Notes: generated by a model not told the origin, from the sequence alone. A stretch of DNA of 64,000 nucleotides from a virus (IMGVR_UViG_3300037851_000542:1-64000); one strand, 5' to 3'. Shown: positions 8,831 to 29,339, counted from the first letter of the stretch. Numbers and translations: made by a program.

Positions 8831-9129
8831 AATATCCCTTTTAATTATATAACCTAATTAGATATGTATCGTCACTAATTAAAAATAACTTTAGTTAAAT
8901 AATTAGGAAGAGGACTAATCAAAGAGGATATGGGGAGATTTATAAGGATTGTCTCCTAGGTCAATTGGGGAATAGGGATTGCCGCCTAGGTTGATTCCAG
9001 TAATAAATACTGCCGCCTAGATAATGTCCCATAGTCATATAAGGTAATAACCCAGAATATAAAGTTCAGCCCCCAGTGATTGTTAAAAAATAACCGGATT
9101 CAATCCGGTTATAGGGGTGCTTTTAGGTA

Positions 9130-9540
9130 TTATCTAGTTATGGTTATGTTTACCAATTTAGGATCAATTCTGTGTAATTCTGTTAGGAATCTTAAAACTA
9201 CTCGGGAACAACGATCAATCTTTCCTGATCCGGTATTCCCTTCGATCATTCTCCAATTGTTACCTTGTGGTGTTCTACCGTTAGAATTAAGCATAAGGTT
9301 TAATAATTGAACTAGTACCATGTTTTGATTCAAAGCTATTGATACCATTGTTTCAATGGTTGATCTTGAATTATGGTATTTTCTATTATTGCTTAAAGAT
9401 TGGTGCTCATTATTTAAGTATCGGCAAGCTACCAAAGCATTTAATTGATCTACTGTCAACGATGATACTCTATAATCTTCATTAACTAAAGTGTATTTCC
9501 ATGTAGACTTACCATTATTGTAGTTTACTGAAGTTATCAT
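9130..9540 (-). CDS. hypothetical protein
   Basis: 136-aa ORF with AAGG upstream. Confidence 0.7.
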   Translation of the reverse strand: MITSVNYNNGKSTWKYTLVNEDYRVSSLTVDQLNALVACRYLNNEHQSLSNNRKYHNSRSTIETMVSIALNQNMVLVQLLNLMLNSNGRTPQGNNWRMIEGNTGSGKIDRCSRVVLRFLTELHRIDPKLVNITITR

Positions 9541-9959
9541 ACTTTACCTTTATATTAGTTAAACCGTTTCTTTCCTCTTATAGTAACTATCGACTATAAA
9601 CCGGAATTACTATAGCTTTAGATCAAGGTAATACGAATTATTCGTATATTTTATTTCTAATATTGTAACATACTGAAAACACATAAAATTATATTTCATA
9701 GGTAATTCTATTAGATTGATAAATAATTCTTTACAGCATTAAAGCTACCAGGATTGATTCTAATTAGTTTTATGGTCTATTGATACAATGGTATAGACTC
9801 AATACCGATCATTCAATGGTAACAATCCTCAATAGAATCAATAGGTTATGTTGGCATAGTTTTTTATTTTGTATGGATATTGCATAGCTTTATTTAAAGC
9901 TAATTTTAAATAAAAATATAAGAGAATTCCCTAGGGAATTCTCTTATATATCACATATA

Positions 9960-10163
9960 CTAGTTTTTCTTATGTTCTATTATCTCAGTTAATAATTTAT
10001 ATATTCCAGCTATAGCTGGGTTCTTGTTACCTTTAATAATAGACTTTAAACTATTATCTTTCATCTCGATTAGTGTATCAATTGATAATCCCATAAATAC
10101 ATGACAAGTAACATCATCATTCTGAACTAGGGAATCAAATATATTGCTCATAGTAATCACCAT
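9960..10163 (-). CDS. hypothetical cassette protein
   Basis: ORF between promoter 10283 and hairpin 9916. Confidence 0.7.
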   Translation of the reverse strand: MVITMSNIFDSLVQNDDVTCHVFMGLSIDTLIEMKDNSLKSIIKGNKNPAIAGIYKLLTEIIEHKKN

Positions 10164-11280
10164 TAGTTAATTAGATACTTTTATAAGTTCTTTTTTACAA
10201 GTTATTAGGATTAAAATACATATAAACAATTTAATAGCGATCATCTTATTCCTTTATTTGGTATCTTTCCTCTTATAGTAATTATCGGACTAATCAAGAA
10301 TACTCTTTAGGTTATTATTTAAAAATAGGTGATTCTCTTAGGTCACGCCATTATAAAAATAAGGTATAATCCTTTTACCTAAGTGTTTGAAAGTCTTACA
10401 TAATATAAACTTAATAGAATCAGCTATTTATAAGCTATTAATATACTTACATAAAATTAACCATATGAAATAATTCACTAAAATTAAGTATATGACATAC
10501 TTAAGGAAATCTAAGTAATTGATATAATTGAATAAATTTAACTATATAATATGTTTAAACAAAGTTAAGTATCTGATTTAATTAAGAAAAGTTAAGTACT
10601 CGATCTCAGGTAGAAACTATAACTTTCTTGTAGCTTTATATAAAGATAGCTTTAAATAAAGGCAAACGGTCAACCAAACCTAGCCTTTTTCAAGGCTAGG
10701 TTTTTATCATTATAAATTATTATATGTATTCTAGCTTTGTATTAGAAACTAAGAAATACCCCTAGGGGTATTTCTTAGTACCTCCTATTACAGTATAAAT
10801 AGATTCTTAGGAATCTTCTTATAGTGCCTACCATTCTTTTCTACAAATACTCTTATCTTATTCTCAGGAGCATTCTTTTTCATTATGAGTGTAGTTAATC
10901 CTAAACTCATGACAGCCCCGAATATTAATCCTACTAATACAGATAATACTTCTAACATTGTTCATTCTCCTGTGTTAATTCTTCTGTGGTTACTAATAGT
11001 CCTCTTGATTCTAATACTTTGTAATGGTCTTGGATGTCTTGTTCGGTGATCTCACCTAGTGATTCTGTATATAATCCTCCTAGTTCTTCTATTGAGGGTC
11101 TCATATTTTGGTACTCCTTTTTTTGCCTTATGTATATACTATCGGATCTAATCGTAGATTACTTTAGTTTTATTTTTCTCTCTAGGTAATTTTCTTAGGT
11201 GCCCCAAAATTAAATCAGCTTTATATAAAGCTAAGTATGTAAGCTAAGAGAATCCCCTAGGGGATTCTCTTAGTGTTATC

Positions 11281-11502
11281 TTATTCCCAATATAGCTTTC
11301 CTGATACAGCACCTTTTACTTTAGTTAAACCACAATCTTTCATAAATTGTTCTTTCTGTTTCCTTTCTATTGCTTTGATTGCTTTCTTTCTTAGTTCTTT
11401 ATACTCCTTTGGTTGGTCTAGTTCGGTTACTATGGTTCCAGTAGTATTGATTCGAATTGATCTTTCTTTGGTTTCTTTGTTTTGAAGTAGTGTATATTTC
11501 AT
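11281..11502 (-). CDS. hypothetical cassette protein
   Basis: promoter 11536, GGAG SD, terminator 11244. Confidence 0.8.
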   Translation of the reverse strand: MKYTLLQNKETKERSIRINTTGTIVTELDQPKEYKELRKKAIKAIERKQKEQFMKDCGLTKVKGAVSGKLYWE

Positions 11503-11590
11503 TTTAATTACTCCTATTTTTTGCCCATATAAGTATATCGGATGATATACTTATAAACTTTAGATTGAAATTACTACCTAGGAAATATTA

Positions 11591-11890
11591 CTAGTTTATC
11601 TCTTTGTTCTCTTGTCTTCCAAAGATAACAGTAGCACAATCAATAATCAAAGTAGGCTCTATATTGGTTACTACTGAAACGAATATAGCAGGCTCAAAAC
11701 ATCTCTTTTTAAGGGTATTAAGATGCTCTTGAGAATGTATAACCATATTACAGGTGATGTTATTGTTTACTTCGACTATTACACTTCCTAGTTCATCGTT
11801 TATGAATTTAGTTATCATTCCATATATAGGATAAGTTTTTCCTAGTTCTGGTTTTTCTACTTGCGGGTTTAGTTGTAATTGGTTGTTCAT
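11591..11890 (-). CDS. hypothetical cassette protein
   Basis: promoter 11931, AGGAG SD. Confidence 0.8.
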   Translation of the reverse strand: MNNQLQLNPQVEKPELGKTYPIYGMITKFINDELGSVIVEVNNNITCNMVIHSQEHLNTLKKRCFEPAIFVSVVTNIEPTLIIDCATVIFGRQENKEIN

Positions 11891-12107
11891 TGTAGCACTC
11901 CTAATATGGGTTTTTTCCTCTTAGTAATAGTATCGGATCTAATCAGATAAATCTTTATATTAAAATAGCTCTGTCTAGGTATTTTTCTTAGTTGCCCCGA
12001 AATAAAATCTGCTTTATGTAAAGCTAGGCAGTTGGCACGAAGATTGCATAGCTTTATATAAAGCTATCACATAATTAAGAGAATCCCCTAGAGGATTCTC
12101 TTACTCT

Positions 12108-12305
12108 TTAAAGTATTTGTAAACAGTATGTAGTTAGTGGTACTAGGTTTTTTTCTAAGTGTTCAGAGTAAAAATCAATCTTTAATTCTAGTTTAACTAA
12201 TAATTTTTCTTCCTGTTCTGTTAGTCTTCTGTGTAGCATTGCATTGCATAACTCAGTATGCTTATCTAGTGCTTTCTTTAGTTTTAGTTCCGTTTTAGTT
12301 AGCAT
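12108..12305 (-). CDS. hypothetical coiled-coil protein
   Basis: 65-aa ORF, AAGGA SD. Confidence 0.7.
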   Translation of the reverse strand: MLTKTELKLKKALDKHTELCNAMLHRRLTEQEEKLLVKLELKIDFYSEHLEKNLVPLTTYCLQIL

Positions 12306-12321
12306 CCTTTACCTTATGTTT

Positions 12322-12615
12322 TTATCCTATTATTACTACTCCGTTAACCTTATCACCTTTCTTTAATTGTTTAGCTTTACACTGCTCAACAAAATCTAAA
12401 GGAAAGTCAAACGGTACCGCTCCATAACTAGGTGACAAGTGCATAAAATACTTTGCATTACTGCCTTTACTATTTAATACTCCTTTTCCTGTAATTGGAT
12501 CAAATTGACCTATAGACTTGTCAGATTGGACCGTGATAGTCCTATCACCATCATTAAAAGGATATACACTAAATTCTTGTGGTTTTCTCATATTGCCTAG
12601 TTTTGCAGTGATCAT
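12322..12615 (-). CDS. hypothetical phage protein
   Basis: promoter 12649, GGAGG SD. Confidence 0.8.
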   Translation of the reverse strand: MITAKLGNMRKPQEFSVYPFNDGDRTITVQSDKSIGQFDPITGKGVLNSKGSNAKYFMHLSPSYGAVPFDFPLDFVEQCKAKQLKKGDKVNGVVIIG

Positions 12616-12783
12616 ATTACCTCCATTGTATCTTGCCTTATATAAGTATATCGGAGTACTTTTAATTTATCTTTAGGTTAAAGTAATATGTTTACGAGTT
12701 TTTCTTACTTGCCCCAGAATTAAATTAGCTTTATATAAAGCTATCGTACAAATAAGAGAATCCCCTAGAGGATTCTCTTATTT

Positions 12784-13014
12784 CTAATCAATTAGTGAAC
12801 CTAGACTCAACTCTAACTTTAGATTACGAAAATCCTCTAGTAGGTCATAACTAGCAGTGTAATAATGTCCTGTAAAAGATGCCTCTATTAGTCTACCGTT
12901 CACGATCTTATATATCGTCGTGTTCCTGCCAAAATCTTCAAAGACGATATTTACTTCGTGAACTTCGTTAAACATAACTCTATCCAGACCTAATTGATGT
13001 TCCGTGTATGTCAT
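12784..13014 (-). CDS. hypothetical cassette protein
   Basis: promoter 13058, AGGAG SD; shares TIYKIVNGRL-type motif with 15608. Confidence 0.8.
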   Translation of the reverse strand: MTYTEHQLGLDRVMFNEVHEVNIVFEDFGRNTTIYKIVNGRLIEASFTGHYYTASYDLLEDFRNLKLELSLGSLID

Positions 13015-13224
13015 GTCTTTACTCCTGTTGAAGGTTATTTTCTACTCTCATATACACTATCGACGCATAATTAAGAATCCTTTAGACCAATCTTAAGATG
13101 CTACGAAAAACTCGTAGGCTACCGAATCTTGCTTAGCTTTATATAAAGCTAATTTATATCACGTTAGCTTTATATAAAGCTAACCTCTGCTAATTTAATT
13201 TTGGCGCAATAATTGCATAGCTTT

Positions 13225-13515
13225 TTATTGGTATATACTAAGAATAATTAACCAAGGTATAACAGCTAGTGAAAAGTAAACAGTATTCAAACATATAAAT
13301 ATAACTTTGTAATGCTTACATAAAATAAATATGGATATGCCACATAATAAAGCAAACAATTTTCCTATAATTAAAGCGTTTATAACTCCATATTGAACCA
13401 TTAAATAGCTCAATAATGGATTACCCTCACCTTGTATAGAATGAGTACTAACACCAATATACGTTAGTACTCCATCTAGGATCTGTAATATTATAAAGGT
13501 TATTAGTAGGTTCAT
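13225..13515 (-). CDS. small membrane protein (DUF5658-like)
   Basis: ILQILDGVLTYIGV...GEGNPLL pattern, 3 hydrophobic segments. Confidence 0.65.
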   Translation of the reverse strand: MNLLITFIILQILDGVLTYIGVSTHSIQGEGNPLLSYLMVQYGVINALIIGKLFALLCGISIFILCKHYKVIFICLNTVYFSLAVIPWLIILSIYQ

Positions 13516-13520
13516 ATAGT

Positions 13521-13766
13521 TTAACAGGTTACTAATGCTACTGCTAGTTTATCATCATCTAGTAGTTTTATGTATATGCTGGAAAAATATGTTTCACTTA
13601 TTACGCCATCAAAAAAATCATCTTTGAGGTACATAGCGTCATCAATATCAAACCATCTACCTTTTAACTCAAATCCTTCTACTAAATCTTTTGATGGATC
13701 TTCCTCATTCGGTCTAAATTCTACATCAACAACCTTTACATAGTGGATAGTTTGTTCATTGCTCAT
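13521..13766 (-). CDS. hypothetical acidic protein
   Basis: promoter 13800. Confidence 0.75.
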   Translation of the reverse strand: MSNEQTIHYVKVVDVEFRPNEEDPSKDLVEGFELKGRWFDIDDAMYLKDDFFDGVISETYFSSIYIKLLDDDKLAVALVTC

Positions 13767-14200
13767 AAATGTTACCTATGTTTTTTTGCCTATAGTAGTT
13801 ATCGGAACGAATCAAAGAATACTTTACACTTAAATCTTATTTCTAGGTAATTTTCTTAGTTGCGCCGAAATGTCTTAGCTTTATATAAAGCTGGCACAAG
13901 ACTTGCTTAGCTTTATATAAAGCTAAGCCGTTGGCACGATTCTTGCATTATGCATAACCTGTGCCATAAGTGAATCTATTAGAGTCTGGTAGAATCTATC
14001 AAAGTCCTATAGCTTTATATAAAGTCTTGCGCACGCGCACGGACAACTTTATATAAAGGTAGCTTTATATAAAGGCAAACGTGTAACCAAACCTAGCTTT
14101 ATATTAATATAGCTTTATATTATTGCAAAAACCTTAACCAAACCTAGCTTTATATTAGAGTCTAAGAAATACCCCTAGGGGTATTTCTTAGTAGTTTACT

Positions 14201-15031
14201 TTAGTATACAAATCCTAAACTTTCAATATCTTTTCTGAATTCAGCCATTAGAGCAGGTAAACGATCAAGTAATAGTTTTGTTAATTCCTCTTTAGGTAAT
14301 GATAATTGTTCGTCGGTAGCATCCGGCCAAATTCCGGTATTTCTAGCCTTATCTAGTTCTCTTTCTTTTCCTTCACTGAAGGAAGTAGCTACTTTGATTA
14401 TTTCAAAATCATTTTTAACAAATTCATCCCAAATTAAAGGATTCTTAGAAGTATCACCATAAAAATCTAAAGCAAAAGGGCATTCATGCCATTTTGTTGT
14501 GTAACCTTCTGGCGATAACTTACTAGAAAAATTGCTAGGGTTATCTTTACCATAAGGAACTTCTACTAGCTTTATATTAGATAAGTATCCTCTATTTTCT
14601 TCAATCCATTTTATAAATGATTTGGAGTAGTTAGTAAATGGCACATTAAAGTTATTAAACTTAACAGCATATTCAAAGGATGATGGTTCACCTTTAGATC
14701 TTCCCCAACAATCCTTATCACCAGCCAAATAAACCGTATTATTAACATAATACATAGGCTGATCGGAACTACAGAGATGCCATTTGATTAAATGAGCATA
14801 TTCAGGAAAATGTTCTTGTATTTGATCGTGTATACATCCTCCTGAACCTTCACGCCATCTACCACGATCTAAGTATTCGGTTTCTCCTGTAATAGCAAAG
14901 GTATTGTGTTTATTATTGCATTCGTCATCATACCTAATTTTTACTCTGATTCTTTCTGTACCTTCATTGAATAGCTTCCAATCAGATTGAATAACTTGTT
15001 TCTTAGTTAATATGCTTTCTGGTAGTGACAT
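14201..15031 (-). CDS. conserved hypothetical phage protein (276 aa)
   Basis: long clean ORF, promoter 15075, terminator 14162. Confidence 0.85.
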   Translation of the reverse strand: MSLPESILTKKQVIQSDWKLFNEGTERIRVKIRYDDECNNKHNTFAITGETEYLDRGRWREGSGGCIHDQIQEHFPEYAHLIKWHLCSSDQPMYYVNNTVYLAGDKDCWGRSKGEPSSFEYAVKFNNFNVPFTNYSKSFIKWIEENRGYLSNIKLVEVPYGKDNPSNFSSKLSPEGYTTKWHECPFALDFYGDTSKNPLIWDEFVKNDFEIIKVATSFSEGKERELDKARNTGIWPDATDEQLSLPKEELTKLLLDRLPALMAEFRKDIESLGFVY

Positions 15032-15250
15032 CTTTTTATTCCTTATTAAAAGGTTTTTTTCCTCTTATATTAACTATCGGTATTATATTCAGAATGCTTT
15101 AGATTGATTTGTTCTTTCTAGGTATTTTTCCTACTTGCCCCGCATCAAACCTGCTTTATATAAAGCAGGTTTATGGTAACTGAGCTTTATATAAAGCTCA
15201 GTATATAAGCTAAAAGAATCCCCTAGGGGATTCTTTTAGTTTGTTAAAAT

Positions 15251-15535
15251 TTAATTTGCAGTAAAGGATCTACTTTCAGGAGTATTAATAACAATAGGAT
15301 CAAAGTCATGTAATTGTGTTTCTCCTGTTAATGATTGTATCTTACTTGCAAATAATCTGGATACTCTATGTTGATTAACCCATTCAGTACCTTTATTGTT
15401 TTCATTAGCTAATTGCCACAATCTTTCCGTAATAGCAGAAAAGGATCTTACTACACCACTAAGATTACAAGCATTCTGAACCTGTATTGCTTCATTTATT
15501 AGTTCACTTTCTGAATAATTAGTATATCGTGACAT
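15251..15535 (-). CDS. hypothetical cassette protein
   Basis: promoter 15574, GGAG SD, terminator 15210. Confidence 0.8.
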   Translation of the reverse strand: MSRYTNYSESELINEAIQVQNACNLSGVVRSFSAITERLWQLANENNKGTEWVNQHRVSRLFASKIQSLTGETQLHDFDPIVINTPESRSFTAN

Positions 15536-15607
15536 GTTATATTCTCCTATATAATTTTTCCTACTAAATAAACTATCGGCACAATTTAAAATAAACTTTA
15601 GGTTAAT

Positions 15608-15997
15608 TTATCGGTAAAGATTAGAATACTGTGAATCTTTTAATTTTGCTTTTAAGTCTTCTACTACATAACCAATATGACTAGTAAATTTTGCTGATAC
15701 TAGTCTATCATTTATTACCTCATAGATAAGAGTATGGGGAAACTTTTTACCAAAGGTAAGAAATACTCTTAAGTGTTTTTTGTTTGCCGTATAAAAATAA
15801 ATGTTATTATTGTGATCTGTATACTTCCATGTTTCATTGACTTTATGGTGTAAATTTATAATAGCGTTTAATGCTTTGATTCTAGATTGTGTTAATTTAC
15901 TTTCATTATTGGCTTCACTTTTTTTACAATCTTCTAAATGCTTTTCTAAGTCAGCCAATTTTTTAAATAGTCTTATTTCTTTAGTAGTAGTATTCAT
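15608..15997 (-). CDS. hypothetical cassette protein
   Basis: promoter 16032. Confidence 0.8.
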   Translation of the reverse strand: MNTTTKEIRLFKKLADLEKHLEDCKKSEANNESKLTQSRIKALNAIINLHHKVNETWKYTDHNNNIYFYTANKKHLRVFLTFGKKFPHTLIYEVINDRLVSAKFTSHIGYVVEDLKAKLKDSQYSNLYR

Positions 15998-16604
15998 ATG
16001 ATTACCTTCTATTTGTTTGCCTATAGTAGTCTATCGGTTCAATAAATAATAATCTTTAGTTTAAAATTAAAATCTAGGTAAATTTCTTAGTCCTTCTCGA
16101 ACAATGCCTAGCTTTATATAAAGCTAGGAAGCTGGCACGAATCTTGTTTGACTTTATCATAATAACATTGTATACTTATTTTGTTGGGGTGAATATACTC
16201 ACTTCGATCAGGACGGACGGGACTGTAGGACTTGCCCTTAGAAACCCCTATTTTCGGATAGCGGGAGTAGTCACATAAAGTGAGCTTTATATAAAGATGG
16301 CTTTATATAAGCGCCATATATAGCCATACCTTGCTTTATATAAAGTTGGCTTTACCTAATTGCAAAATAGACCACCAAACTTAGCTTTATATTAAAATCT
16401 ATTAGATACCCCTAGGGGTATCTAATAGATATGTTATTACTTTTTATCCTTTAACATACAAATTAAACCATTACCTACCCATATAGTTTTATAACCTAGT
16501 GATTTAGCTTTCATATAGTAACTAATATACCTGTTATTTATGATTATCTCATTCCTATTAGATGAATTTCTATATACTTTTTTCACTTTTATTACTCCTG
16601 TTTT

Positions 16605-17138
16605 TTACAATATACTTTCTCTAATGTCATAAAATACCATATCGGGTATAGGTCGATCTCTATTTGTTCTAGAACTAAATATGCTTAGTCCTAAATTACT
16701 ACATATTTCTATTCTATCCCGTTGATTTAAAACCTCGTACCAATATTTATTAATTTCGTTATATTCGGCTTCAGAAATGGCATCTTCATTATACAGTGGA
16801 TAATTCTCTAATGCGCCCAAAATTTCATATACTTTATTTAATACTACCTCACTTGTTTGCTTATGTACTAGTATGGTTTCTATCCAACCTACTGCCCAAT
16901 GATTAGCCTGTATTGATTGAATCATAGGTTCATTACTATCTAACATTGAAACTGTTTCTTCAGTTAGTTTTTCTAAATCCCTTAAGATGCATTCAAAGTT
17001 TACATTAGTATATAATTTGCTATCTCTATGCCTACCATATACCTCAATATAATCATAGAATGTAGGACCAAAGTAGGAATCTGGTAATTTCCAAAAGTTA
17101 TCTGATAGTGCTTCCAAGTTAGTGTTATGTCCTACCAT
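16605..17138 (-). CDS. conserved hypothetical phage protein
   Basis: HWAVGWIETILV motif; promoter 17180, GAGG SD. Confidence 0.8.
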   Translation of the reverse strand: MVGHNTNLEALSDNFWKLPDSYFGPTFYDYIEVYGRHRDSKLYTNVNFECILRDLEKLTEETVSMLDSNEPMIQSIQANHWAVGWIETILVHKQTSEVVLNKVYEILGALENYPLYNEDAISEAEYNEINKYWYEVLNQRDRIEICSNLGLSIFSSRTNRDRPIPDMVFYDIRESIL

Positions 17139-17380
17139 TTTTTATTACCTCTTATGTTTTGTTTTTCCCTATATATGTATATCGGATCTAATCGTAATAA
17201 TCTTTAGACTAGAATTATATTACTAGGTAATTTTCTTAGGTGCGCCAAAATAAAACTGGCTTTGTACAAAGCTTTGCAATCGGCGTGCCAGCTTCGTAGC
17301 TTTATATAAAGCTACGTTTATAAAAAAAGATGCCGGTGCAGAACCTCACCGGCTAGGTTTTTATAGAGTAGGAGTATTAA

Positions 17381-17629
17381 CTATGAGGTAGGATTTAAAT
17401 TATTTAATCTTCTTTCTAAGTTAGAACATTGAGGTTCAAATTGTTTAATTTCTTGTTCAAATATGTATCTTATTTTAGAAACATTTTTAGTCTCTTTATA
17501 AAACCTGTAAGGTGAAACATAATTTAGTTGAGGATGCTTGATATATAACCAACCTAAATCACCATTGTAATACTCTTTTACATCATTACAAAGGTTATCG
17601 AATAATTTGCTGTTTATTTTATCTGACAT
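17381..17629 (-). CDS. hypothetical cassette protein
   Basis: promoter 17664, GGAG SD. Confidence 0.75.
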   Translation of the reverse strand: MSDKINSKLFDNLCNDVKEYYNGDLGWLYIKHPQLNYVSPYRFYKETKNVSKIRYIFEQEIKQFEPQCSNLERRLNNLNPTS

Positions 17630-17693
17630 ATTTCTTACTCCTATGTTTTTCCCTATATATGTTTATCGGCGGTAATTGAATTAAACTTTAGAA

Positions 17694-18092
17694 CTAATTT
17701 ACTTTATTTGTAAGTTTTGCGATCTCCTTTAAATGATTAGCAGGTGAATACTCATTTTTAGGTTCAAACGTTTTACCCTTTCTCAGGTCTTGTATATAGT
17801 TTTTAGGTAATGTAATATCAAAGTAATGGTTTAATCTCCTATGATCTCCTTTACAATCTTCAATTGTAATAGGTCTCATATTATTATTAGGCTCAGGAAA
17901 GATACTATCAAACTCTAATTGTAAAGTTTTAAGTTCAGAGCAGGTACCGTTAAATGTTATGTTTATTACAGTTCTAGATTGACCACAAGTGTTAAAATCA
18001 GTAAACTTGTTTATAATATGTCCTTTACTTTTAAGGAAGTTTATAGCGTTGTTTCTTTCCTCTATAGTGGTTTCAAAGTTATCACGTATCAT
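17694..18092 (-). CDS. hypothetical cassette protein
   Basis: promoter 18132, AGGAG SD. Confidence 0.8.
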   Translation of the reverse strand: MIRDNFETTIEERNNAINFLKSKGHIINKFTDFNTCGQSRTVINITFNGTCSELKTLQLEFDSIFPEPNNNMRPITIEDCKGDHRRLNHYFDITLPKNYIQDLRKGKTFEPKNEYSPANHLKEIAKLTNKVN

Positions 18093-18444
18093 ATTAAACT
18101 CCTTAAGTTATTTTATTCCGCCTATGTATTCTATCGTCACTTGATTATATAAACTTTAGTTTAAAATAAAAGTCTAAGAGTTTTTCTTACTATGCTTTAT
18201 ATCAAGTAGCTTTATCTAAAGCTGAGGTTTTTAAAAGTACCGGATCTGTAAAATCAGATCCGCCTAGCTAGATTAACTCTCTTGTGATTCCTTTATAGCA
18301 TTTTTCTTTTGATTAGTCCTAGTCCTGTTCCTTTTTGTTCTCTTATCTTGCATAGAGGTATTACGGCAAGCCATAGTATTATTAGGGTCTATTCTATCTT
18401 TATAGTTGTTTTTCTTTTTTGTCATAATACTCCTATAGTATACA

Positions 18445-18768
18445 CTAACTTTTATCGGCGTTTGATACTCTTACCCCAAAATTAACGACATCTCTAAGAT
18501 TTTGGGCTGTTATTTTCCAAGATGGCTCATATCCGCATAAATCTAAACCGCTATCCTCTTCTGCTGCCTCTATAAGTGTAGAAAGGTAGTATCTTGCTAC
18601 AAATTGCCCACGTCCCATATCAAAAGAATGTCTTGTATCGTAAAATTCAATAACTGGTTCCTCTTTATCATGTGTCAGACAATCTTCTAAACCGTATGGA
18701 CTGCCCTTAACTAAAACTCTTACATTGAAGGTTATTCCTTGATTGTTAGTTACTTGAATCATATACAC
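18445..18768 (-). CDS. conserved hypothetical phage protein
   Basis: EPVIEFYDTRH...GQFVARYYLSTL motif; promoter 18796. Confidence 0.8.
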   Translation of the reverse strand: MYMIQVTNNQGITFNVRVLVKGSPYGLEDCLTHDKEEPVIEFYDTRHSFDMGRGQFVARYYLSTLIEAAEEDSGLDLCGYEPSWKITAQNLRDVVNFGVRVSNADKS

Positions 18769-19277
18769 CCTATAGTTGTTTGCCTATATAATAACTATCG
18801 GCTTGTTTATATATTATCTTTAGGTTAAAATTTATATATGCAAGTTTTTCTTAGTAGTCCCAGAAATAAACTAGCTTTATATAAAGCGTAGCGTTATATA
18901 AAGCTAGGCGAGCGGCTTTATATAAAGCTAAGCTTTATATAAGCGTCACACGTAGCCATACCTTGCTTTATGTAAAGTCAGCTTAAAATGATCGCAAAAT
19001 AGGCAGCCAAACCTTAGTTTAAGTTATAAATTAAAAAATAGCACTAGAGGGTAGTTTTAGCTTTATATAAAGCAAGATCGTATTTAAAAAAGGTGCCGGA
19101 GGCGAAAACCTCTCCGGCTAGGTTAGGAGGAACTATGATATGCTTAAAGAAAAAAGAGGATACAGGAAAATAAATCTAATGATTAAGGAGGTAATAAACT
19201 GAGATACTATGCTTATTTACTTTCCTCTACCCTCTATATAATATATCGTCACGTTTGTTAAATTACTTTAGTCTTTT

Positions 19278-19571
19278 TTAATAATTATTAATATTTATTT
19301 TTGCCTGCTCTAAACTTTCTATACCCTTTTCTAAGGTCTCAATTTCTCCTGTAAAGGTTTTATCTCCACTAATAGGGTTAGTCACGTACTTAGCTTGTCT
19401 AATAGCAAATACCCTTGTATTATCCTCAAAGCATTTCTTTTCTGAGGTAATAAAAGTACCATTACTAAACAGTTTACTTTCTACTTTTGAAGCGAAAAAC
19501 CTCATAGTATCAAGATCAAAGAAGTGATGTCCAATATCTTTATTAAGTTTTTTTATTTCCTGTATATTCAT
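19278..19571 (-). CDS. conserved hypothetical phage protein
   Basis: GHHFFDLDTMRFFASKV motif. Confidence 0.8.
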   Translation of the reverse strand: MNIQEIKKLNKDIGHHFFDLDTMRFFASKVESKLFSNGTFITSEKKCFEDNTRVFAIRQAKYVTNPISGDKTFTGEIETLEKGIESLEQAKININNY

Positions 19572-19573
19572 TT

Positions 19574-19774
19574 TTAATTATCCTCTTTTATTTCATAAAC
19601 TCCCCAAGTATCAATATCTTGGGTATCAATATATTCAAATAAGATATCGTCGGAACCGTCTTCAAGTTTATTATTGGCTAATTCTATAGCCTGTTCTACT
19701 GACTCGGCTTCCACTTCAAATATTTTAAGCCATCTTTCGTGTACATTAACATGATACTTTTTTTTAGTAGTCAT
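19574..19774 (-). CDS. DpnD/PcfM-like small protein
   Basis: YHVNVHE...FEVEAESVEQAIELA pattern; promoter 19810. Confidence 0.6.
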   Translation of the reverse strand: MTTKKKYHVNVHERWLKIFEVEAESVEQAIELANNKLEDGSDDILFEYIDTQDIDTWGVYEIKEDN

Positions 19775-19967
19775 TTTTTTAATCTCCTATAATTTACCTT
19801 CTAATATTATATCGGCGAGTTTATAGTTTATCTTTAGATTGATTTATTATTTCTAAGTAAATTTCTTATTTGCTCCAGAGCATATGTTAGCTTTATATAG
19901 AGTTAGCTTTATATAAAGCAGGTATATAGGACTAAGAGAATCCCGTAGGGGATTCTCTTAGTTTGGT

Positions 19968-20189
19968 TTAACCTACTAATTGATTTAACTGTGATTGGTC
20001 TACTAATGTTTTTGGATTGCTTCCAACCCAAGAATTTATATGCCTAGTTGTTGTCTTAGTGTAGTATGTATTGGTAACAAAGTATCCTTGATTAGGTATA
20101 TACACGGCTACAGGAGTACTATAACTATACAAAACAATCATACCTTTGATATGTACCTCAGTTTTATTTTTTGCTAAACTTTTAATCAT
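19968..20189 (-). CDS. small phage protein, paralog of 22177
   Basis: shared SLAKNKT...LYSYSTPVA...KTT.RHINSWV. Confidence 0.8.
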   Translation of the reverse strand: MIKSLAKNKTEVHIKGMIVLYSYSTPVAVYIPNQGYFVTNTYYTKTTTRHINSWVGSNPKTLVDQSQLNQLVG

Positions 20190-20425
20190 TTGGATTGACT
20201 CGCTGGACTATTTACAACACTAGGAGCAACAATTTCACCAATAAAGTTTATTAATCCTTCTATACCTTCAATATCTTCTTTTAAAAGTTCTTCGGCATCT
20301 TCATCACTTATGAAGTGTATAAGATCATTTTTTAGCCTGATTTGTACCTCTATTAAAGTATTCAATTGTTTTTCTAATAGATCTAAGTCTACATTTTTAA
20401 TTGTAATATCTTTTGTATTGCTCAT
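20186..20425 (-). CDS. hypothetical protein
   Basis: promoter 20463, GGAG SD. Confidence 0.75.
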   Translation of the reverse strand: MSNTKDITIKNVDLDLLEKQLNTLIEVQIRLKNDLIHFISDEDAEELLKEDIEGIEGLINFIGEIVAPSVVNSPASQSK

Positions 20426-20637
20426 CTTAGTAACTCCCTAAATAATTTACCTTCTAATATTATATCGGCTTGATCAATAATTATCTTTAGGTTAATTACG
20501 TGTTCTAATAGTTTTTCTTAGATTAATATTAAATAAAGGTAGCTTTATATAAAGCTACCTTTATTTAAAGCTAGATTTATATAAAGTTAGTATACTGAGA
20601 CTAAGAGAATCCCGTAGGGGATTCTCTTAGGTGTTTA

Positions 20638-21387
20638 TTATTCTTTTGTAAATAGTTCTAATAGTATCCTACCCTCTTGTAATGCCCTATCAATACCAAA
20701 GAAACCCCAACATGATTCTAAGATTTCATCTTCAGTATGATGACATGAGTTACAAGTATTAGTCTTAGTCACAACAAAACCATAAACATCACCTTCTAGG
20801 TATTTTGCATAAGTCTTAACTTCATTATTAAGGTATTCTAGTATTTGTTCCTTTGATTTATCCTTTAATCCTTCAGATTCAATCTTTGATTTGGTAACAT
20901 ATATCCAGCCTACTTGACCACTATCCCGACCGCAACTAAACCCACTTGTGTTCATTGTAATACCACCATGCTCATATGCATGTAGGTTTAAGTATATTAC
21001 ACTATCAGGAAGATCCGTAACTGTTTGTATGCGTTCTACCGTAGTTTCAAACAATAAGTTTATAGACCGATCATAACTATGTTCTAGGATTTCCCTGTAT
21101 TGACTTATATTACCTTTACAAGTGTTAAGAATAAAATCTAGTTTTTCTTGTTCAGTAGCCTCACTTTCCCATATATCTATTAGAAAAGATTCAGGTTCTT
21201 TATAATTGTGTTTGTCTCCTAACCTATAACCCCTATGAAAGCATATCATTGTTCCTAGGTTATCCCATTCTCTAGGCGACATGGGACAATCATCATTAAG
21301 TATTTCAAGTTTATACCCGTTTTTTACTTCTTTGTGTATTACATATGATGACATAATTATTACCTCTATAATAGTTTTTCTACTCAC
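20638..21387 (-). CDS. conserved hypothetical phage protein (~240 aa)
   Basis: SPREWDNLGTMICFH...HGGITM...SGQVGWIY...YLEGDVYGF...ESCWGFFG; start probably about 21355. Confidence 0.85.
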   Translation of the reverse strand: MSRKTIIEVIIMSSYVIHKEVKNGYKLEILNDDCPMSPREWDNLGTMICFHRGYRLGDKHNYKEPESFLIDIWESEATEQEKLDFILNTCKGNISQYREILEHSYDRSINLLFETTVERIQTVTDLPDSVIYLNLHAYEHGGITMNTSGFSCGRDSGQVGWIYVTKSKIESEGLKDKSKEQILEYLNNEVKTYAKYLEGDVYGFVVTKTNTCNSCHHTEDEILESCWGFFGIDRALQEGRILLELFTKE

Positions 21388-21451
21388 ATTAATATTATCG
21401 GCTACAATATGAATAATCTTTAGGTTAAAATTATAGGTCTAGGTGTTTTTC

Positions 21452-21940
21452 TTATCCACCTCTATTACCTCTATATTCTTTTTCTACTTTAGTCTGTAAT
21501 AATCCTTTTTTATATACTATTTTTCCCTGAAACGCTTGCCCGCTTTCATAGTAACTCAGTTTAATATCTACTAAAGGGAATTTTAAAGCCAATTCTTCAA
21601 TAACCGGTTCTGGCGGTGACCAAGCCGTTAGAAAAGAAACTAAAACTCTTTTTTGTATTCTTTTAGTAGTCGGTAAATTTTCCAGCTGTATTTCGTAAGC
21701 GTTCCATTTGGTACCCCAATTCTCTACACACCAATTATACCCACCAGAATTAAAACCGCTACCCTCTTTTATTTTATCGGCTTCCAAATACCTGGAAGGA
21801 TAAGGAATCAATGTATTAAAATCAAAAATAGACTCACTAGTTTTAATACAATCTAAAACCTTTTGAACATCTTCTATTTTACCTTGAATTAAAAGATCAT
21901 TTTCTACGTGATTAGGCATCCTTTTCTCCCTATGAAACAC
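21452..21940 (-). CDS. DUF1281/YubB ferredoxin-like family protein
   Basis: MPNHVENDL...NWCVENWGTKWNA...FLTAWSPP motifs. Confidence 0.75.
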   Translation of the reverse strand: MFHREKRMPNHVENDLLIQGKIEDVQKVLDCIKTSESIFDFNTLIPYPSRYLEADKIKEGSGFNSGGYNWCVENWGTKWNAYEIQLENLPTTKRIQKRVLVSFLTAWSPPEPVIEELALKFPLVDIKLSYYESGQAFQGKIVYKKGLLQTKVEKEYRGNRGG

Positions 21941-22176
21941 AAATTTAAAATTCTTTTCCTAGTATAATTATCGGACGTATTATCAATTAACTTTAGATTG
22001 AATTATAGGTTTAGGTGTTTTTCTTAGTAATCCCAAAACCAATGTTGGCTTTATATAAAGCTGGAAAGTTGGTATGATTTATGCATAGCTTTATATTAAG
22101 CTACTTTATATAAAGCTATTGGATAAATAAAAATTGCCGTAGTCGGAACCCCTACGGCTAGGTTTATGTTTAAAGG

Positions 22177-22413
22177 TTATAGAAAACTATGTATTACTGA
22201 ATCCGATACGTGTCTTTGGTTGACTAAAGGAGTTACCCAAGAATTTATGTGACGTTTTGTCGTTTTAGAGTAGTTTAAATAATCTTTGGATATTAGGTAT
22301 TCTCCCTTGGTAAAAATTGCTACTGGTGTTGAATAAGAATATAATATTTTAGTTCCATCTAGCTTATAAATTACTGTTTTATTTTTTGCTAAACTTTCAA
22401 GTCTTTGCATCAA
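22177..22413 (-). CDS. small phage protein, paralog of 19968
   Basis: SLAKNKT...LYSYSTPVA...KTTKRHINSWV. Confidence 0.8.
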   Translation of the reverse strand: MMQRLESLAKNKTVIYKLDGTKILYSYSTPVAIFTKGEYLISKDYLNYSKTTKRHINSWVTPLVNQRHVSDSVIHSFL

Positions 22414-22661
22414 TGTAATTCCTCATCAAATAAAATAGTTACCGGTTTTTCTATATTAGTTATTTTTATATTCTTAGTCTCCAATTCATTTATAAAGTTT
22501 CTTAACTCATCTCTATATAAGGTAAGGGCTTCACCTTGTATACTTTTATCTGTATTATTAAATTTAGTGAATACAATACTAGTTCTATCGGTATCAGACA
22601 GAACTAATCCTATTAGGTTGTTATTTTCATCCTTAATAGTTTTCTTTATATGTCTTTCCAT
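22410..22661 (-). CDS. hypothetical protein
   Basis: ATGA-coupled to 22177. Confidence 0.7.
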   Translation of the reverse strand: MERHIKKTIKDENNNLIGLVLSDTDRTSIVFTKFNNTDKSIQGEALTLYRDELRNFINELETKNIKITNIEKPVTILFDEELH

Positions 22662-22666
22662 ATTGT

Positions 22667-22972
22667 TTAATCTCTATAGTGTATGCAGTTTCTAACTACT
22701 TCCCAATTGATCCCTACTTCTGAGTCGTGATTATCTTTTAAATCACATAAAACAGCAAAGGCTTGGTCATCCGTTAAATTTGTATCCATTTCTTGAGCTT
22801 CCATCTTTATATCTTCTATAGACCACATCAATGCAATTTGGCTAGTAGGATCAAATTTTAGAACATCTTTTGGAAAAAGCTCTAACAGTTTTTTAACTTC
22901 CTCTATTGTTGGGTTTTCACTATCTACGAATTCTTGTAATGTTTTCATCTTATTTACTCTTATTTTTACCAC
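22667..22972 (-). CDS. conserved hypothetical phage protein
   Basis: WSIEDI...LTDDQAFAVL...HDSEVGINWEV motif; promoter 22981. Confidence 0.75.
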   Translation of the reverse strand: MVKIRVNKMKTLQEFVDSENPTIEEVKKLLELFPKDVLKFDPTSQIALMWSIEDIKMEAQEMDTNLTDDQAFAVLCDLKDNHDSEVGINWEVVRNCIHYRD

Positions 22973-23015
22973 TAATTATTTATCGGCATTATTATAAAAT
23001 AACTTTAGGTTAAAA

Positions 23016-23291
23016 CTAAATATCTATAAAATATAGGTCTTGATCAGTATAAGGCAATGGTTCTACTACTTCTACAAAGTCCCAACATTTAGGTTGATAC
23101 ATTGTAGCTATATCTTCCCTTGCCTCTTGTTCATTTTTAAATTTACCTTCAATTATATCATCTCCTACAGTTATTTGGTTTGATTGAACATCATAAACTA
23201 TTAGTGCTCTTAAATAGTGTGGTATGTCTTCCGTATTACCAATGTTAATGCTACCTATAATTACTTTTTCCATAATTAAATTCCTATTCAA
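23016..23291 (-). CDS. hypothetical protein
   Basis: ORF in cassette. Confidence 0.7.
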   Translation of the reverse strand: MNRNLIMEKVIIGSINIGNTEDIPHYLRALIVYDVQSNQITVGDDIIEGKFKNEQEAREDIATMYQPKCWDFVEVVEPLPYTDQDLYFIDI

Positions 23292-23496
23292 AGTCTATGT
23301 TTATTGCCTTTGTCCATATACCATCTAAAAGAATATGTAATCCGAATTCATCATCTTCACAAGTATCATCTGCTTTAGTCTCAAATAATCTAGAATCCTC
23401 AGTACTGATAAATCTTCCATCTTCTAAAGGTAACCATAGATCTTGACCTGTTAAATCTTTTCTTACCTTCACAGTATGCTTTACAGTATTATTCAT
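23284..23496 (-). CDS. hypothetical protein
   Basis: promoter 23542. Confidence 0.75.
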   Translation of the reverse strand: MNNTVKHTVKVRKDLTGQDLWLPLEDGRFISTEDSRLFETKADDTCEDDEFGLHILLDGIWTKAINIDFE

Positions 23497-23770
23497 ATTG
23501 GTACCTTTATTTAAGATAGCTTATTTGCCTTCTAATAATAGTATCGTCATTGTTATAAATAATCTTTAAACTAAAATTGTAGTACTAGGTAAATCTATTA
23601 GGTGCGCCGAAATTAAAAGTAGCTTTATATAAAGTTGCTTTATAGCAAGCTAGCTTTATATAAAGCCAGCTTGATGGCACGAATCTTGCTTAGCTTTATA
23701 TAAAGCTACCACACGACTTTATATAAAGCGTAGCTTTATATAAAGTTATAACACAGCTTGATATAAAGTT

Positions 23771-23835
23771 GATCGAACGATCAACCGATCAAAAGATCTA
23801 ATGATCATTTGGGAAACTCACAACCAAACCTAGGC
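23771..23835. repeat. GATC ladder copy 1 (5 GATC at 8-bp period) plus CCAAACCTAGG
   Basis: GATC at 23771, 23779, 23787, 23795, 23803. Confidence 0.9.
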
Positions 23836-24039
23836 TTTTTATTATAATGCGGTTTTAGTTTATTATTTTATTTTTGGGGCACTATATGAAAATGAAACTA
23901 TAAAAAGGCACCCACCCCTTTTACCTATAATGTAATAATATGATCGCTAATCTTATAATATATTCAAAATATGATCGCTAAAGTTATTATATATGAATAT
24001 TTCTGACGCTAAAACATTCATATATAACAAAATAAATCG

Positions 24040-24351
24040 CTAACCTATATCCTTAGTTAAGAACCAATTCCTGTCATACATATCCTGAGTAAATATAATT
24101 TTCTTTAGGTCTGTCTTATCAAATACTGACTCAGTAAGATCTAGGTCTGAAGTAATAGAACTCAATTGATAGTATTGCTTCTCTTGATTTCTATACCTGT
24201 ACTTGTTTACTCCAACTACTTTAGTATTATAAATCGCGGCAAAAGATTCATCCTCCTGATTAGGATCAGCCTTAAGTTTAACATATAAAGTATAGTTACC
24301 TCTGAGTTCGATATTATTTATATCTATAATAGCAAGGTCTTGTTCTGACAT
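24040..24351 (-). CDS. hypothetical protein, paralog-like to 24376
   Basis: YTLYV...YDRNWFLTKD versus YTLHV...YGKTWWLVKD. Confidence 0.75.
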   Translation of the reverse strand: MSEQDLAIIDINNIELRGNYTLYVKLKADPNQEDESFAAIYNTKVVGVNKYRYRNQEKQYYQLSSITSDLDLTESVFDKTDLKKIIFTQDMYDRNWFLTKDIG

Positions 24352-24375
24352 GTCATACTCCTTTATAAAATAAAA

Positions 24376-24600
24376 TTAATCTTTTACTAGCCACCAAGTT
24401 TTACCATAATTCTCTGGTGTGAAAGCAAGATCACATACATCTACTTGTACTGCAATCTTATCGCCACACTTTGAGTCAAAATAAAAATTAGAACTTACCT
24501 TATTATCCAGTTTTACTTCTTTTGCTATACCTTGCACCTCCGTATGAGATACATGTAAGGTATATTCATCTTCCTTGTTCAGGTCTTCCAGTTTAATCAT
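24376..24600 (-). CDS. hypothetical protein
   Basis: promoter 24637. Confidence 0.75.
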   Translation of the reverse strand: MIKLEDLNKEDEYTLHVSHTEVQGIAKEVKLDNKVSSNFYFDSKCGDKIAVQVDVCDLAFTPENYGKTWWLVKD

Positions 24601-24660
24601 AGCTTAATATCCCTTATAGCTTAGCCACTAAATAACTATCGGCGCAGTAAGTAAATAACT

Positions 24661-24948
24661 TTAGATTAAAAATACTAATTTATCTGAATCCAGTAGTATT
24701 GCTGTGTGTATATTTGTAAATTTTGGCGTCGGTGTGGTTTGAACCTGCAACTCCATATAGAAATCGTCCAGAGCAGTAATTTTTCCGGCGACCCAAATAA
24801 AACCGTCTGACTTTCTTTTGATTAGACAAGAAGTACCAACCAAAGTAATACCATTACCAAGCATCCTTAAAAGCCTATCTGTATGAGTACCTTCAAATAT
24901 ATCCTCAAAACTAGGAAGATTAGTATTTATCATATAAAGAAGAACCAC
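24661..24948 (-). CDS. small protein with C-terminal tail
   Basis: ends LVFLI*; stop lies inside the next -35 box. Confidence 0.75.
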   Translation of the reverse strand: MVLLYMINTNLPSFEDIFEGTHTDRLLRMLGNGITLVGTSCLIKRKSDGFIWVAGKITALDDFYMELQVQTTPTPKFTNIHTAILLDSDKLVFLI

Positions 24949-25196
24949 TGAGTATTAGTAGAATCTTTGTGAAAAAAGAAATCCTGTGTCATATAAGAAA
25001 CAATTTTTGTTTTTACGTCCGCATACTTAATTGACCAATCTTGCTCATTATTATCAGTACCCTTAGATACTATTACCCAAGTCTTATTTAATCCTAAATG
25101 ATCGGGGCTATATAAAACTTTAGGTACTTTTATAAAAGTATTTCCATTGTTAAATATAGCCTTTAGTTTATCTTGATTAGTAGGTTTAGTTATCAT
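24930..25196 (-). CDS. small protein with C-terminal tail
   Basis: ends WFFFI*; promoter 25232. Confidence 0.75.
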   Translation of the reverse strand: MITKPTNQDKLKAIFNNGNTFIKVPKVLYSPDHLGLNKTWVIVSKGTDNNEQDWSIKYADVKTKIVSYMTQDFFFHKDSTNTQWFFFI

Positions 25197-25427
25197 CTAG
25201 GTTGATAGTCTCCATAAAAGTATAACATAGGTATCGGCACATACTTAAGATAACTTTAGATATATTTTACTGACCCAGCTTTATATAAAGCGTAGCTTTA
25301 TATAAAGCCCTAGGTTGGTATGATTTATGCATAGCTTTATATCAAGCTGAGCTTGATATAAAGCACCCTTTATTTAAAGCTAGATTTATATAAAGCTAAA
25401 TTAAAATACATAGCTTTATATAAAGTC

Positions 25428-25491
25428 GATCAGCAGATCAAACGATCAAAAGATCTAATGATCATTTGGGAAATTGATCACCAAACCTAGG
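25428..25491. repeat. GATC ladder copy 2
   Basis: GATC at 25428, 25436, 25444, 25452, 25460 and 25476. Confidence 0.9.
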
Positions 25492-25834
25492 CTTTTTAGC
25501 AATTGATTTTTTAATCTATAAATTACTTATTTGGTAACCTGTGGAAGATTATAATTTATAAATAGACCCCACCCTATTGATTTTAAACCTAGTTTAAACT
25601 TTCATTAATTAATGAAAGTTCCTGTAAAAATAGGGTCACTATGGGATAGTTATTTTAGGCTAAAGTTATTTAATATTTAAGTCGTATTATTTATATCAAA
25701 ATTAAAGTATATAATTATATAGACAAACTTTAGATTAAAATAGAGTAGAATAGTAGTATATTTAGTGTGATATATAAATAAACTTTAGATTAAAAACAGG
25801 TTAAAAGTGCTACTATGGGACGGAGAATAAAGAC

Positions 25835-26158
25835 TTAAATTAAAAACTGATAATTATATAACTTATAACCTAAACATAAAAACCATTCTAATTTGGTAAC
25901 ACCACTACCATTACTATAAAAAACAGGATGGTGATGTTTAAGATCTAAGTCTACTGGAGAAACACTATAACTAATATTATAATTAATTCTAGAGGTAATA
26001 GATCTAAGTGTAACAGTTTTAGTAATGATTACAAGACGAAACTGGGGTTTATGACCTATTTCAAATAAGGTTAGCAAAGTAATACTAGATTTATTTCTAA
26101 GTAATCGTTTTATATCTTTTGAGGTTAGTGGAAAAGAATAAGGCTTCTTAGGCGTCAT
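25835..26158 (-). CDS. small protein with C-terminal tail
   Basis: ends YQFLI*. Confidence 0.7.
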   Translation of the reverse strand: MTPKKPYSFPLTSKDIKRLLRNKSSITLLTLFEIGHKPQFRLVIITKTVTLRSITSRINYNISYSVSPVDLDLKHHHPVFYSNGSGVTKLEWFLCLGYKLYNYQFLI

Positions 26159-26256
26159 AATAACAGGTTTTTAGTGAAAATTACCCAACCTATTTATTAG
26201 AGACTAGTCTCTAATAAGAAGATCAGTATTTTTATTAAATATTTTCCTTAAAATAA

Positions 26257-27735: not shown

Positions 27736-27875
27736 TCATACCTTGAACCATAGACCTATGGGTAGTTTTATACCCTGTAAAATCACCTATAACTAGCTTT
27801 ATACCTTATGGGGTCTATTCTCTCTATAAACCCTGTTAGGTATAAAATCACAGGTTTTATTGTGTCACTATGGGA

Positions 27876-28728: not shown

Positions 28729-28738
28729 TTATATACTT

Positions 28739-29331: not shown

Positions 29332-29339
29332 ATAAGATT

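Follow-up and report, generated by a model that had tools for sequence, protein, structure and literature searches.

The DNA analyzed here, referred to as the window, is the first 64 kb of IMGVR_UViG_3300037851_000542, an IMG/VR virus record of 259,994 bp with 33% G+C and an estimated completeness of ~95%, which represents an uncultured ~260-kb freshwater lake phage. A megablast search of the region found no near relative among the phages deposited in GenBank. Genes run leftward from ~27.4 kb and rightward from ~28.1 kb, and the minus strand of the window carries an array of about 20 short transcription units, each of which reuses one composite regulatory block (Table 1). In the direction of transcription, the block consists of a strong hairpin or terminator, one or more copies of a 16-bp palindrome, AGCTTTATATAAAGCT, a conserved element denoted the TAAG box, a sigma-28-like promoter, and a conserved leader that provides a strong ribosome-binding site. 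Coding sequence makes up only 61% of the array. Related contigs differ from the window by the gain, loss or replacement of cassettes, with several crossovers inside elements of the block.

The composite block and its cargo

When up to two mismatches were allowed, AGCTTTATATAAAGCT was found 45 times in the window, compared to 0.14 copies expected from shuffled sequences, and 46 times in the whole genome; 45 of these 46 copies are inside the single ~17.5-kb stretch of the array. The copies fall into 18 groups of one to six, with preferred center-to-center spacings of 16–17, 31–32 and 40 nt, and the first palindrome of a block follows the preceding hairpin by 8–14 nt. Positions 3–15 are conserved at 91–100% in both halves, and the symmetry reaches 18 bp (T-...-A). 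Some copies extend to perfect palindromes of 24–40 nt, and a single 16-mer folds at just −3.6 kcal/mol. The palindrome sequence was not found in the searched literature. One of the groups surrounds a GC-richer intergenic element of ~150 nt (16130–16280) that precedes the promoter at 16032. The related contig L401 has a copy with 74% similarity (4052–4244) at a different intergenic site, upstream of a promoter of the 17180 type. The RNA structure predicted for 16155–16285 was not unusual.

The promoter, TAAAG-N17-CGATA, occurs at 49 sites in the genome, and its spacer was 17 nt at all 49 when lengths of 13–17 nt were allowed. Twenty-four of the sites are on the minus strand at 10.2–27.3 kb. Since 12 further sites, without palindromes, drive plus-strand genes at 28–57 kb, the promoter type is a genome-wide class and not a cassette feature; specific to the array are the palindromes, the TAAG box and a TATAGGCAAAAA-like leader that marks its units. 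Palindromes are present within ~130 nt upstream of 16 of the 24 array promoters, and in 13 of these 16 (14 if the degenerate palindrome at 17258–17273 is counted) the center of the nearest palindrome lies 57.5–60.5 nt upstream of the first T of TAAAG. The TAAG box (TAAGAAA) starts 31–33 nt upstream of TAAAG at 14 promoters, and the strong hairpins are found 100–150 nt upstream of the −35 element, with the palindromes and the TAAG box in between. About ten of the hairpins are perfect, CTAG-centered palindromes of 26–34 nt (−16 to −22 kcal/mol) without a U-run, and five other unit ends are ordinary terminators with a GC stem and a T-run. Rfam and tRNA scans of the region gave nothing credible.

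A preliminary description of this DNA had proposed ~20 units with the same order of elements, which is borne out by the counts and spacing of palindromes, promoters and TAAG boxes. The GG(G/C)GCA..CCTAG element that it placed in the block was recovered as the TAAG box, and the promoter spacer that it considered common to 11140 and 17180 is indeed identical over all 17 bases. Other parts of that description needed adjustment. The array was placed at 9100–25500; it is present, with actual limits of 9886 and 27339, slightly past the proposed end. A CTAG-centered terminator in each unit was only partly found, since the ~10 CTAG hairpins lack a U-run and five ordinary terminators stand in their place elsewhere. 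The sigma-28 promoter is a component of the units, but not one peculiar to cassettes, and the block is not uniform from unit to unit, as seven intra-operon promoters have neither palindrome nor hairpin.

The cargo had been described as mostly unrelated, and among the 37 cargo ORFs (open reading frames) we found only three related pairs, all of them weak or paralogous. Almost none of the cargo had a family match in Pfam and PHROG scans; those that did matched DUF5658, DUF7447, a DpnD/PcfM-like family, DUF1281_C (Api92-like) and a widespread family of 238 amino acids (aa). The 238-aa protein has 59 distant homologues (28–41%) in unrelated viral contigs, none of which carries the block, and the 298-aa neighbor had no close relatives in IMG/VR. 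Many unrelated cargo proteins, encoded at 24661–26577 and elsewhere in the array, end in a similar hydrophobic tail (for example ...FFYLI, ...YQFLI, ...WFFFI and ...LVFLI).

One array promoter (19244–19270) drives a stretch of ~145 nt without an ORF (19088–19236, minus strand) that ends at an intrinsic terminator. The transcript is predicted to fold at −34.2 kcal/mol (z = −2.8, with none of 200 shuffles as good) and exposes a CU-rich stretch with CCUCCU (anti-Shine–Dalgarno). The stretch, which is conserved at 81–91% in the related contigs L400, L401 and L403, is a candidate small regulatory RNA.

Variation and constraint among relatives

Relatives were found through look-ups of 90%-identity clusters of the cargo proteins. 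Nine short contigs from independent assemblies were collinear with the window at 77–93% DNA identity and carry the same palindrome, TAAG box and promoter: L395, L399 and L403 from one European Nucleotide Archive sample, L396 and L400 from a Joint Genome Institute (JGI) sample, and L397, L398, L401 and L402 from four Logan runs. A further relative contig of 5,276 bp was used for gene order only.

Chained alignments over ~18 kb revealed at least 15 structural differences, in which whole ORFs or cassettes were inserted, deleted or replaced. The preliminary description had staked the idea of cassette shuffling on this comparison; cassette order was not identical among the relatives, and several of the junctions are inside blocks. 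Contigs lacking the 392-bp cassette at 12743–13134 match the window through the palindrome at 13135–13150 and resume right after the palindrome at 12727–12742, and the alignments thereby identify the 16-bp palindrome as the site of the crossover. An extra 59-aa cassette in L395, L396 and L398 sits between two copies of a 56-nt hairpin-plus-palindrome unit that is present as a single copy in the window (11217–11272). The cassette at 21455–21990 is bracketed by two copies of the TAAG box and promoter, and the junction in the relatives that lack it overlaps both by 37–48 nt. At 18888–19058, the window has three extra palindromes (four versus one), and the junction in L400, L401 and L403 overlaps a palindrome by 15–19 nt.

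Other differences involve different parts of the units. The DpnD/PcfM-like cassette (19578–19966) is present in the window and in L400, replaced by 186 nt in L401 and L402, and absent from L403, where a stop codon marks each end of the junction. The three cassettes at 13927–16283, missing from L398, are present in the gene order of the 5,276-bp contig. The variable 105-aa ORF is flanked by a short leader repeat (ACTATAGG), and it is one of five clean indels of single ORFs inside operons (94, 65, 74, 77 and 105 aa). Neither reordered cassettes nor excised circles were shown by the assembled contigs, and there was no clear signal of block-level gene conversion, as most blocks in the relatives best match their positional orthologue.

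Assembly error is an unlikely cause of these differences, because each of the main events was seen in two to four assemblies produced by different pipelines, and because the shared sequence at the 12743–13134 junction is shorter than the word length of the assemblers. No deletion joint was reported in the Logan contigs of two source-like runs, which break at the repeated hairpins and blocks, and the lack of cover at 14192–16400 in Logan run X1 proves nothing about absence.

Identity was calculated for each class of position between the window and six relative contigs. Both promoter elements were invariant (150/150 for the −35 and 130/130 for the −10 element), which argues that they are essential. 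The TAAG box (0.935) and the palindrome (0.888) followed, above the promoter spacer (0.852) and other intergenic DNA (0.829), suggesting that both are constrained, less strictly than the promoter elements. Identity at codon positions 1, 2 and 3 was 0.88, 0.92 and 0.76, respectively, which indicates that the cargo ORFs are genuine genes subject to purifying selection.

No other genome with the array emerged from motif scans of public sequence collections. In IMG/VR, the exact palindrome gave single chance matches only, in 74 contigs, and the promoter pattern gave single sites only, among the matches listed. An 18-mer scan of 185,579 species genomes returned 57 scattered single matches, with no array and no clue to the host. 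A scan of metagenome contigs for paired palindromes was dominated by 12-bp satellite arrays, none of them with the promoter; these eukaryote-like contigs (L255–L372, including L315, L305 and L297), obtained from a small number of soil or root metagenomes, have no relation to the phage, and the palindrome arises by chance within their AGCTTTATATAG-type 12-bp arrays. Three IMG/VR relatives identified by their terminase (G003–G005, 43–47% identity) have the promoter motif, with 8 and 2 sites, on fragments that lie outside the array region and are uninformative on the palindromes. A 254,845-bp JGI relative has a terminase with 55% identity.

The strand-switch region next to the array (27400–28130) is free of genes and contains four phased small palindromes around AAAGCTTGCTTT (27609–27735), with a half-site that resembles an inside-out version of the array palindrome, as well as ~7 TACTAGAA repeats (27900–28000); it could be a control hub or an origin. 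The first plus-strand genes beyond it (28181–32767) encode several ankyrin-repeat proteins, followed by a ProQ C-terminal-like protein (33017–33415) and an IS607/TnpB-type element (38790–40449), in which the serine recombinase frame is broken by an in-frame TAA. Within the array, an element of ~70 nt, with GATC every 8 bp followed by CCAAACCTAGGC, is duplicated in the two largest intergenic gaps (23771–23845 and 25428–25500), and shorter CTAGGTTTGGT-type copies are found at ~10690, 14090, 14140, 16380 and 19020. GGCC is nearly absent from the whole record (7 observed versus ~213 expected, a ratio of ~0.03), which suggests avoidance of a GGCC-cutting host restriction system. AGCT, CTAG and GATC are not depleted, ruling out a similar restriction-site explanation for AGCT.

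Table 1. Features of the cassette array and its variable segments (positions in the window)
Feature	Position	Strand	Remarks
Whole cassette array	9886–27339	minus	18 palindrome groups, 24 sigma-28-like promoters, ~37 small ORFs
Complete block promoter (example)	11140–11166	minus	TAAAG-N17-CGATA
Other promoters (starts)	10283, 11536, 11931, 12649, 13058, 13800, 15075, 15574	minus	27 nt each
Other promoters (starts)	16032, 17180, 17664, 18132, 18796, 19244, 19810, 20463	minus	27 nt each
Other promoters (starts)	21396, 21969, 22981, 23542, 24637, 25232, 27245	minus	27 nt each
TAAG-box element (example)	11172–11205	minus	GGGGCA..CTAAGAAAA..TACCTAG
CTAG-centered hairpin (example)	11244–11273		−21.7 kcal/mol, no U-run
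CTAG-centered hairpins	9916–9949, 10748–10779, 12076–12103, 12753–12780, 14162–14191
CTAG-centered hairpins	15207–15242, 16397–16430, 19932–19961, 20601–20630
Ordinary intrinsic terminator	17322–17353	minus	GC stem and T-run
Other ordinary terminators	~9095–9122, 18233–18264, 19086–19118, 22127–22158
Palindrome group	9886–9901		1 copy
Palindrome group	10632–10647		1 copy and degenerate neighbor
Palindrome group	11217–11232		1 copy; with hairpin 11244–11273 forms the 56-nt unit duplicated in relatives
Palindrome group	12010–12065		2 copies, sigma-54-like box between
Palindrome	12727–12742		1 copy; right crossover site of the 392-bp, 76-aa cassette indel
Palindrome group	13135–13181		2 copies; 13135–13150 is the left crossover site of the same indel
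Palindrome group	13877–14076		5 copies, three sigma-54-like boxes
Palindrome group	15152–15198		2 copies
Palindrome group	16110–16347		3 copies around the ~150-nt GC-richer element
Palindrome	17298–17313		1 copy and degenerate copy 17258–17273
Palindrome	18208–18223		1 copy
Palindrome group	18873–19074		4 copies, 1 in relatives; crossover within palindrome
Palindrome group	19889–19920		2 copies
Palindrome group	20541–20588		3 abutting copies
Palindrome group	22047–22117		3 copies
Palindrome group	23621–23770		5 copies
Palindrome group	25277–25427		6 copies; nearest just 26.5 nt upstream of the −35 element
Palindrome group	27305–27339		2 copies, head of array
Variable cassette	12743–13134	minus	392 bp: promoter 13058, 76-aa ORF, hairpin; absent from L395, L397, L398
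Three cassettes	13927–16283	minus	129-, 94- and 276-aa ORFs; missing between two similar blocks in L398
Variable ORF	18442–18795	minus	105 aa, between promoter 18796 and 50-aa ORF; absent from L400, L401, L403
Variable cassette	19578–19966	minus	Hairpin, 2 palindromes, promoter 19810, 66-aa DpnD/PcfM-like ORF
Variable cassette	21455–21990	minus	155-aa DUF1281_C ORF behind promoter 21969; absent from L399, L401, L402
Variable ORF	22168–22415	minus	77 aa, DUF8033-type, paralogue of 19968–20189; absent from L399, L401, L402
Replaced cargo	23014–23531	minus	70- and 85-aa ORFs here, one 147-aa ORF in L399; promoters on both sides conserved
Sigma-54-like boxes	12033–12047, 13202–13216, 13892–13906, 13932–13946, 23675–23689	plus
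Sigma-54-like boxes	13952–13966, 17276–17290	minus
Sigma-54-like box	16134–16147	plus	Weaker copy

Function of the block

The explanation that we favor, and consider fairly probable, is that the array is built on a reused composite block that provides both common control and portable homology for the shuffling of accessory genes. The block would put all units under one control. Its promoter would be read by a sigma-28-like holoenzyme, containing either the FliA of the host or the phage's own sigma-like protein, which is encoded by an ORF at 78.3–79.3 kb of the record; this ORF had no close relatives in IMG/VR. Their twofold symmetry, weak hairpin, fixed distance to the promoter, restriction to one subset of promoters, and constraint make it most likely that the palindromes serve as upstream operators that bind a dimeric protein. 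The symmetric conservation of both halves and the weak fold of the 16-mer suggest that a dimer would recognize the site in double-stranded DNA, and argue against an RNA structure. From docking sites of which the nearest is ~93 nt before the likely transcription start, such a protein would act from upstream to boost or shut off the whole class together, and it may also block read-through between units, with the strong hairpin or terminator closing the previous one. The units may be expressed early, and the cargo may serve functions such as host takeover.

The same blocks would also supply the homology for exchange. Sequences of 16–60 nt that recur every 0.4–1.5 kb could allow ordinary phage recombination between blocks to delete, insert and replace cassettes, leaving related phages with differing cargo. 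We prefer general homologous recombination over a site-specific system, since at least four block elements were used as crossover sites, the genome encodes no tyrosine recombinase, and its only serine recombinase is the broken IS607-type gene at 38.9 kb.

Several observations weigh against this explanation. The conservation of the palindromes (0.89) is just moderately above that of other intergenic DNA (0.83), and their copy number varies freely between relatives, as would also be expected of neutral repeats. About one third of the indels are clean ORF indels whose junctions show hardly any block homology or none. The contigs of the relatives are short, and the events are unpolarized with respect to gain and loss, there being no outgroup. 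In a control outside the array, eight plus-strand proteins had no relatives at ≥90%, and the helicase had matches in short contigs only. Simple repression by occlusion is unlikely, because the palindromes are located upstream of the core promoter and not over it. The searches for a binding protein were likewise negative: profile searches of the genome with HTH_3, HTH_17 and HU/IHF gave nothing relevant, no DNA-binding domain was revealed when the ORFs of the array and the adjoining plus-strand ORFs were all scanned against Pfam and PHROG, and looking up three basic proteins in the Atlas yielded no usable match. The putative palindrome-binding protein may have a novel fold or be encoded by the host.

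Alternatively, the palindromes might be neutral or selfish repeats that spread by unequal recombination or slippage and serve as recombination substrates only. The range of one to six copies within the genome, the variation in copy number at the same site between relatives, the spacings of 16–17, 31–32 and 40 nt, which fit tandem units, and the crossovers inside palindromes are all consistent with this idea. However, neutral repeats would not be expected to place the nearest copy at a fixed distance from the promoter, to be conserved above third codon positions and other intergenic DNA, symmetrically over both half-sites, or to be confined to one promoter class in one region while absent from the same type of promoter at 28–57 kb. 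We consider this alternative unlikely, but the foremost of those that compete with the operator explanation.

A smaller chance is given to the possibility that the palindromes belong to an enhancer-type sigma-54 layer, as activator or repressor sites for TGGCAC-N5-TTGC boxes, with short antisense or intergenic transcripts that insulate or tune the cassettes. Eleven such boxes (GG and GC kept, at most one mismatch) were found in the genome. Seven of them are in the array, all beside palindromes, nested in the spacers that separate these, and five antisense to cargo genes. Comparison with relatives shows that the −24 and −12 elements are retained but the 5-nt spacer is not (e.g., 12033 versus L395). 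However, a box is present in only ~7 of the 18 palindrome groups, and for this reason we rank the sigma-54 explanation below the operator explanation. Moreover, the boxes are within a repeated 40-nt unit, so that the copies are not independent; the palindromes are 0–10 nt from the boxes, compared to the usual 80–150 nt for activator sites; and the box pair at 13932–13966 forms an inverted repeat that is more like a protein site than two promoters. No rpoN gene was found in the phage genome, nor an activator with a GAFTGA motif, the only Sigma54_activat match being a weak, general AAA+ one to a clamp-loader-like ORF without the motif. Many bacteria use sigma-54 and sigma-28 as their two flagellar sigma factors, and a combined arrangement, which we regard as improbable, would wire the array to both of them, with sigma-28 acting in the sense direction and the palindrome stacks serving the sigma-54-type boxes as enhancers or operators, to give an antisense or insulating layer that depends on an activator. 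If this were true, the accessory array would read the motility state of the host through two sigma factors.

The last two alternatives are highly improbable. If the palindromes acted as nucleic-acid structures, either hairpins in RNA or cruciforms in DNA, they could serve as additional terminators, as sites for RNase III, or as signals for replication or packaging. Their constant position 8–14 nt after a hairpin and the perfect symmetry of some copies to 24–40 nt would then be accounted for, but the 16-mer folds too weakly, most sites would not be transcribed, being downstream of strong hairpins, and no Rfam family matched. An integron-like, site-specific system with the hairpins or palindromes as recombinase sites would explain why every cassette terminates in an inverted repeat, whether perfect or imperfect, like the attC of integron cassettes, and why the insertion of one cassette extends precisely between two stop codons, but it does not agree with crossovers at four different block elements, with cassettes that have their own promoters, or with a recombinase repertoire limited to the broken IS607-type gene.

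If the palindrome is an operator, one protein would control ~16 promoters and ~35 orphan genes, and the site would offer a handle to find the regulator and to switch the whole accessory gene set, which is probably anti-host or anti-defence, on or off. The block also marks exchangeable cargo in an uncultured jumbo phage, which helps to prioritize orphan genes for functional screens. The array is among the few cases outside the T4-type phages in which modular shuffling at repeated regulatory cassettes is visible directly from natural variants.

Comparison with known systems

Multi-site operator regulons include the stoperators of Cluster A mycobacteriophages, the C1 operators of P1, the KorA and KorB operators of IncP plasmids, and Aca-controlled anti-defence operons. 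The binding proteins of these systems have been identified, and their sites usually overlap promoters or are located inside transcription units. The array resembles them in having a short symmetric site repeated at many promoters or gaps, through which one protein could control many units, but its sites are upstream and in tandem stacks, and no recognizable binder was found in the genome scans.

The promoter itself resembles the sigma-28 (FliA/SigD) consensus, TAAA-N15-GCCGATAA. The predicted −35 element, TAAAG(T), and −10 element, (G)CCGATA, match it with fixed spacing at all 49 sites, although the spacer is one base longer than in textbook sigma-28 promoters. The host-takeover module of the Bacillus phage SPO1 and the pre-early and early regions of T5-like phages use the main sigma factor of the host. 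In these modules, as in the array, very small genes are densely packed at one end of the genome, and each gene or pair of genes is equipped with a strong promoter, a terminator and a strong ribosome-binding site; we know of no description of a shared upstream palindrome array in these modules.

The closest parallel, and the one that had been proposed, is with the promoter-early stem-loop (PeSL) cassettes in the hyperplastic regions of the T4-type phages RB49 and phi1 (Arbiol et al. 2010, PMC2839356). These have a stable stem-loop within or beside a strong, sigma-70-like early promoter that is preceded by an AT-rich region, and were proposed to act as dispersed homology for recombination; the formation of excised mini-circles is another of their traits (PMC2839356). 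The array differs in that its promoter is of the sigma-28 type, without a TTGACA/TATAAT pair, and its strong hairpin, which belongs to the block, is 100–150 nt upstream rather than within or beside the promoter. The module is also richer, adding an array of one to six copies of the 16-bp palindrome (the putative operator stack) and an upstream TAAG box to the hairpin and the alternative-sigma promoter. In both cases, a short repeated regulatory module precedes small ORFans in one plastic region, and cassettes have been inserted, deleted or replaced between close relatives at junctions that lie in the modules. The analogy holds because the relatives of this phage differ by cassette events, at least 15 in number, with junctions inside shared blocks, namely in the palindrome, the hairpin-plus-palindrome unit and the TAAG-box/promoter repeats. 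By analogy to the PeSL regions, the array may be regarded as a hyperplastic accessory-gene region.

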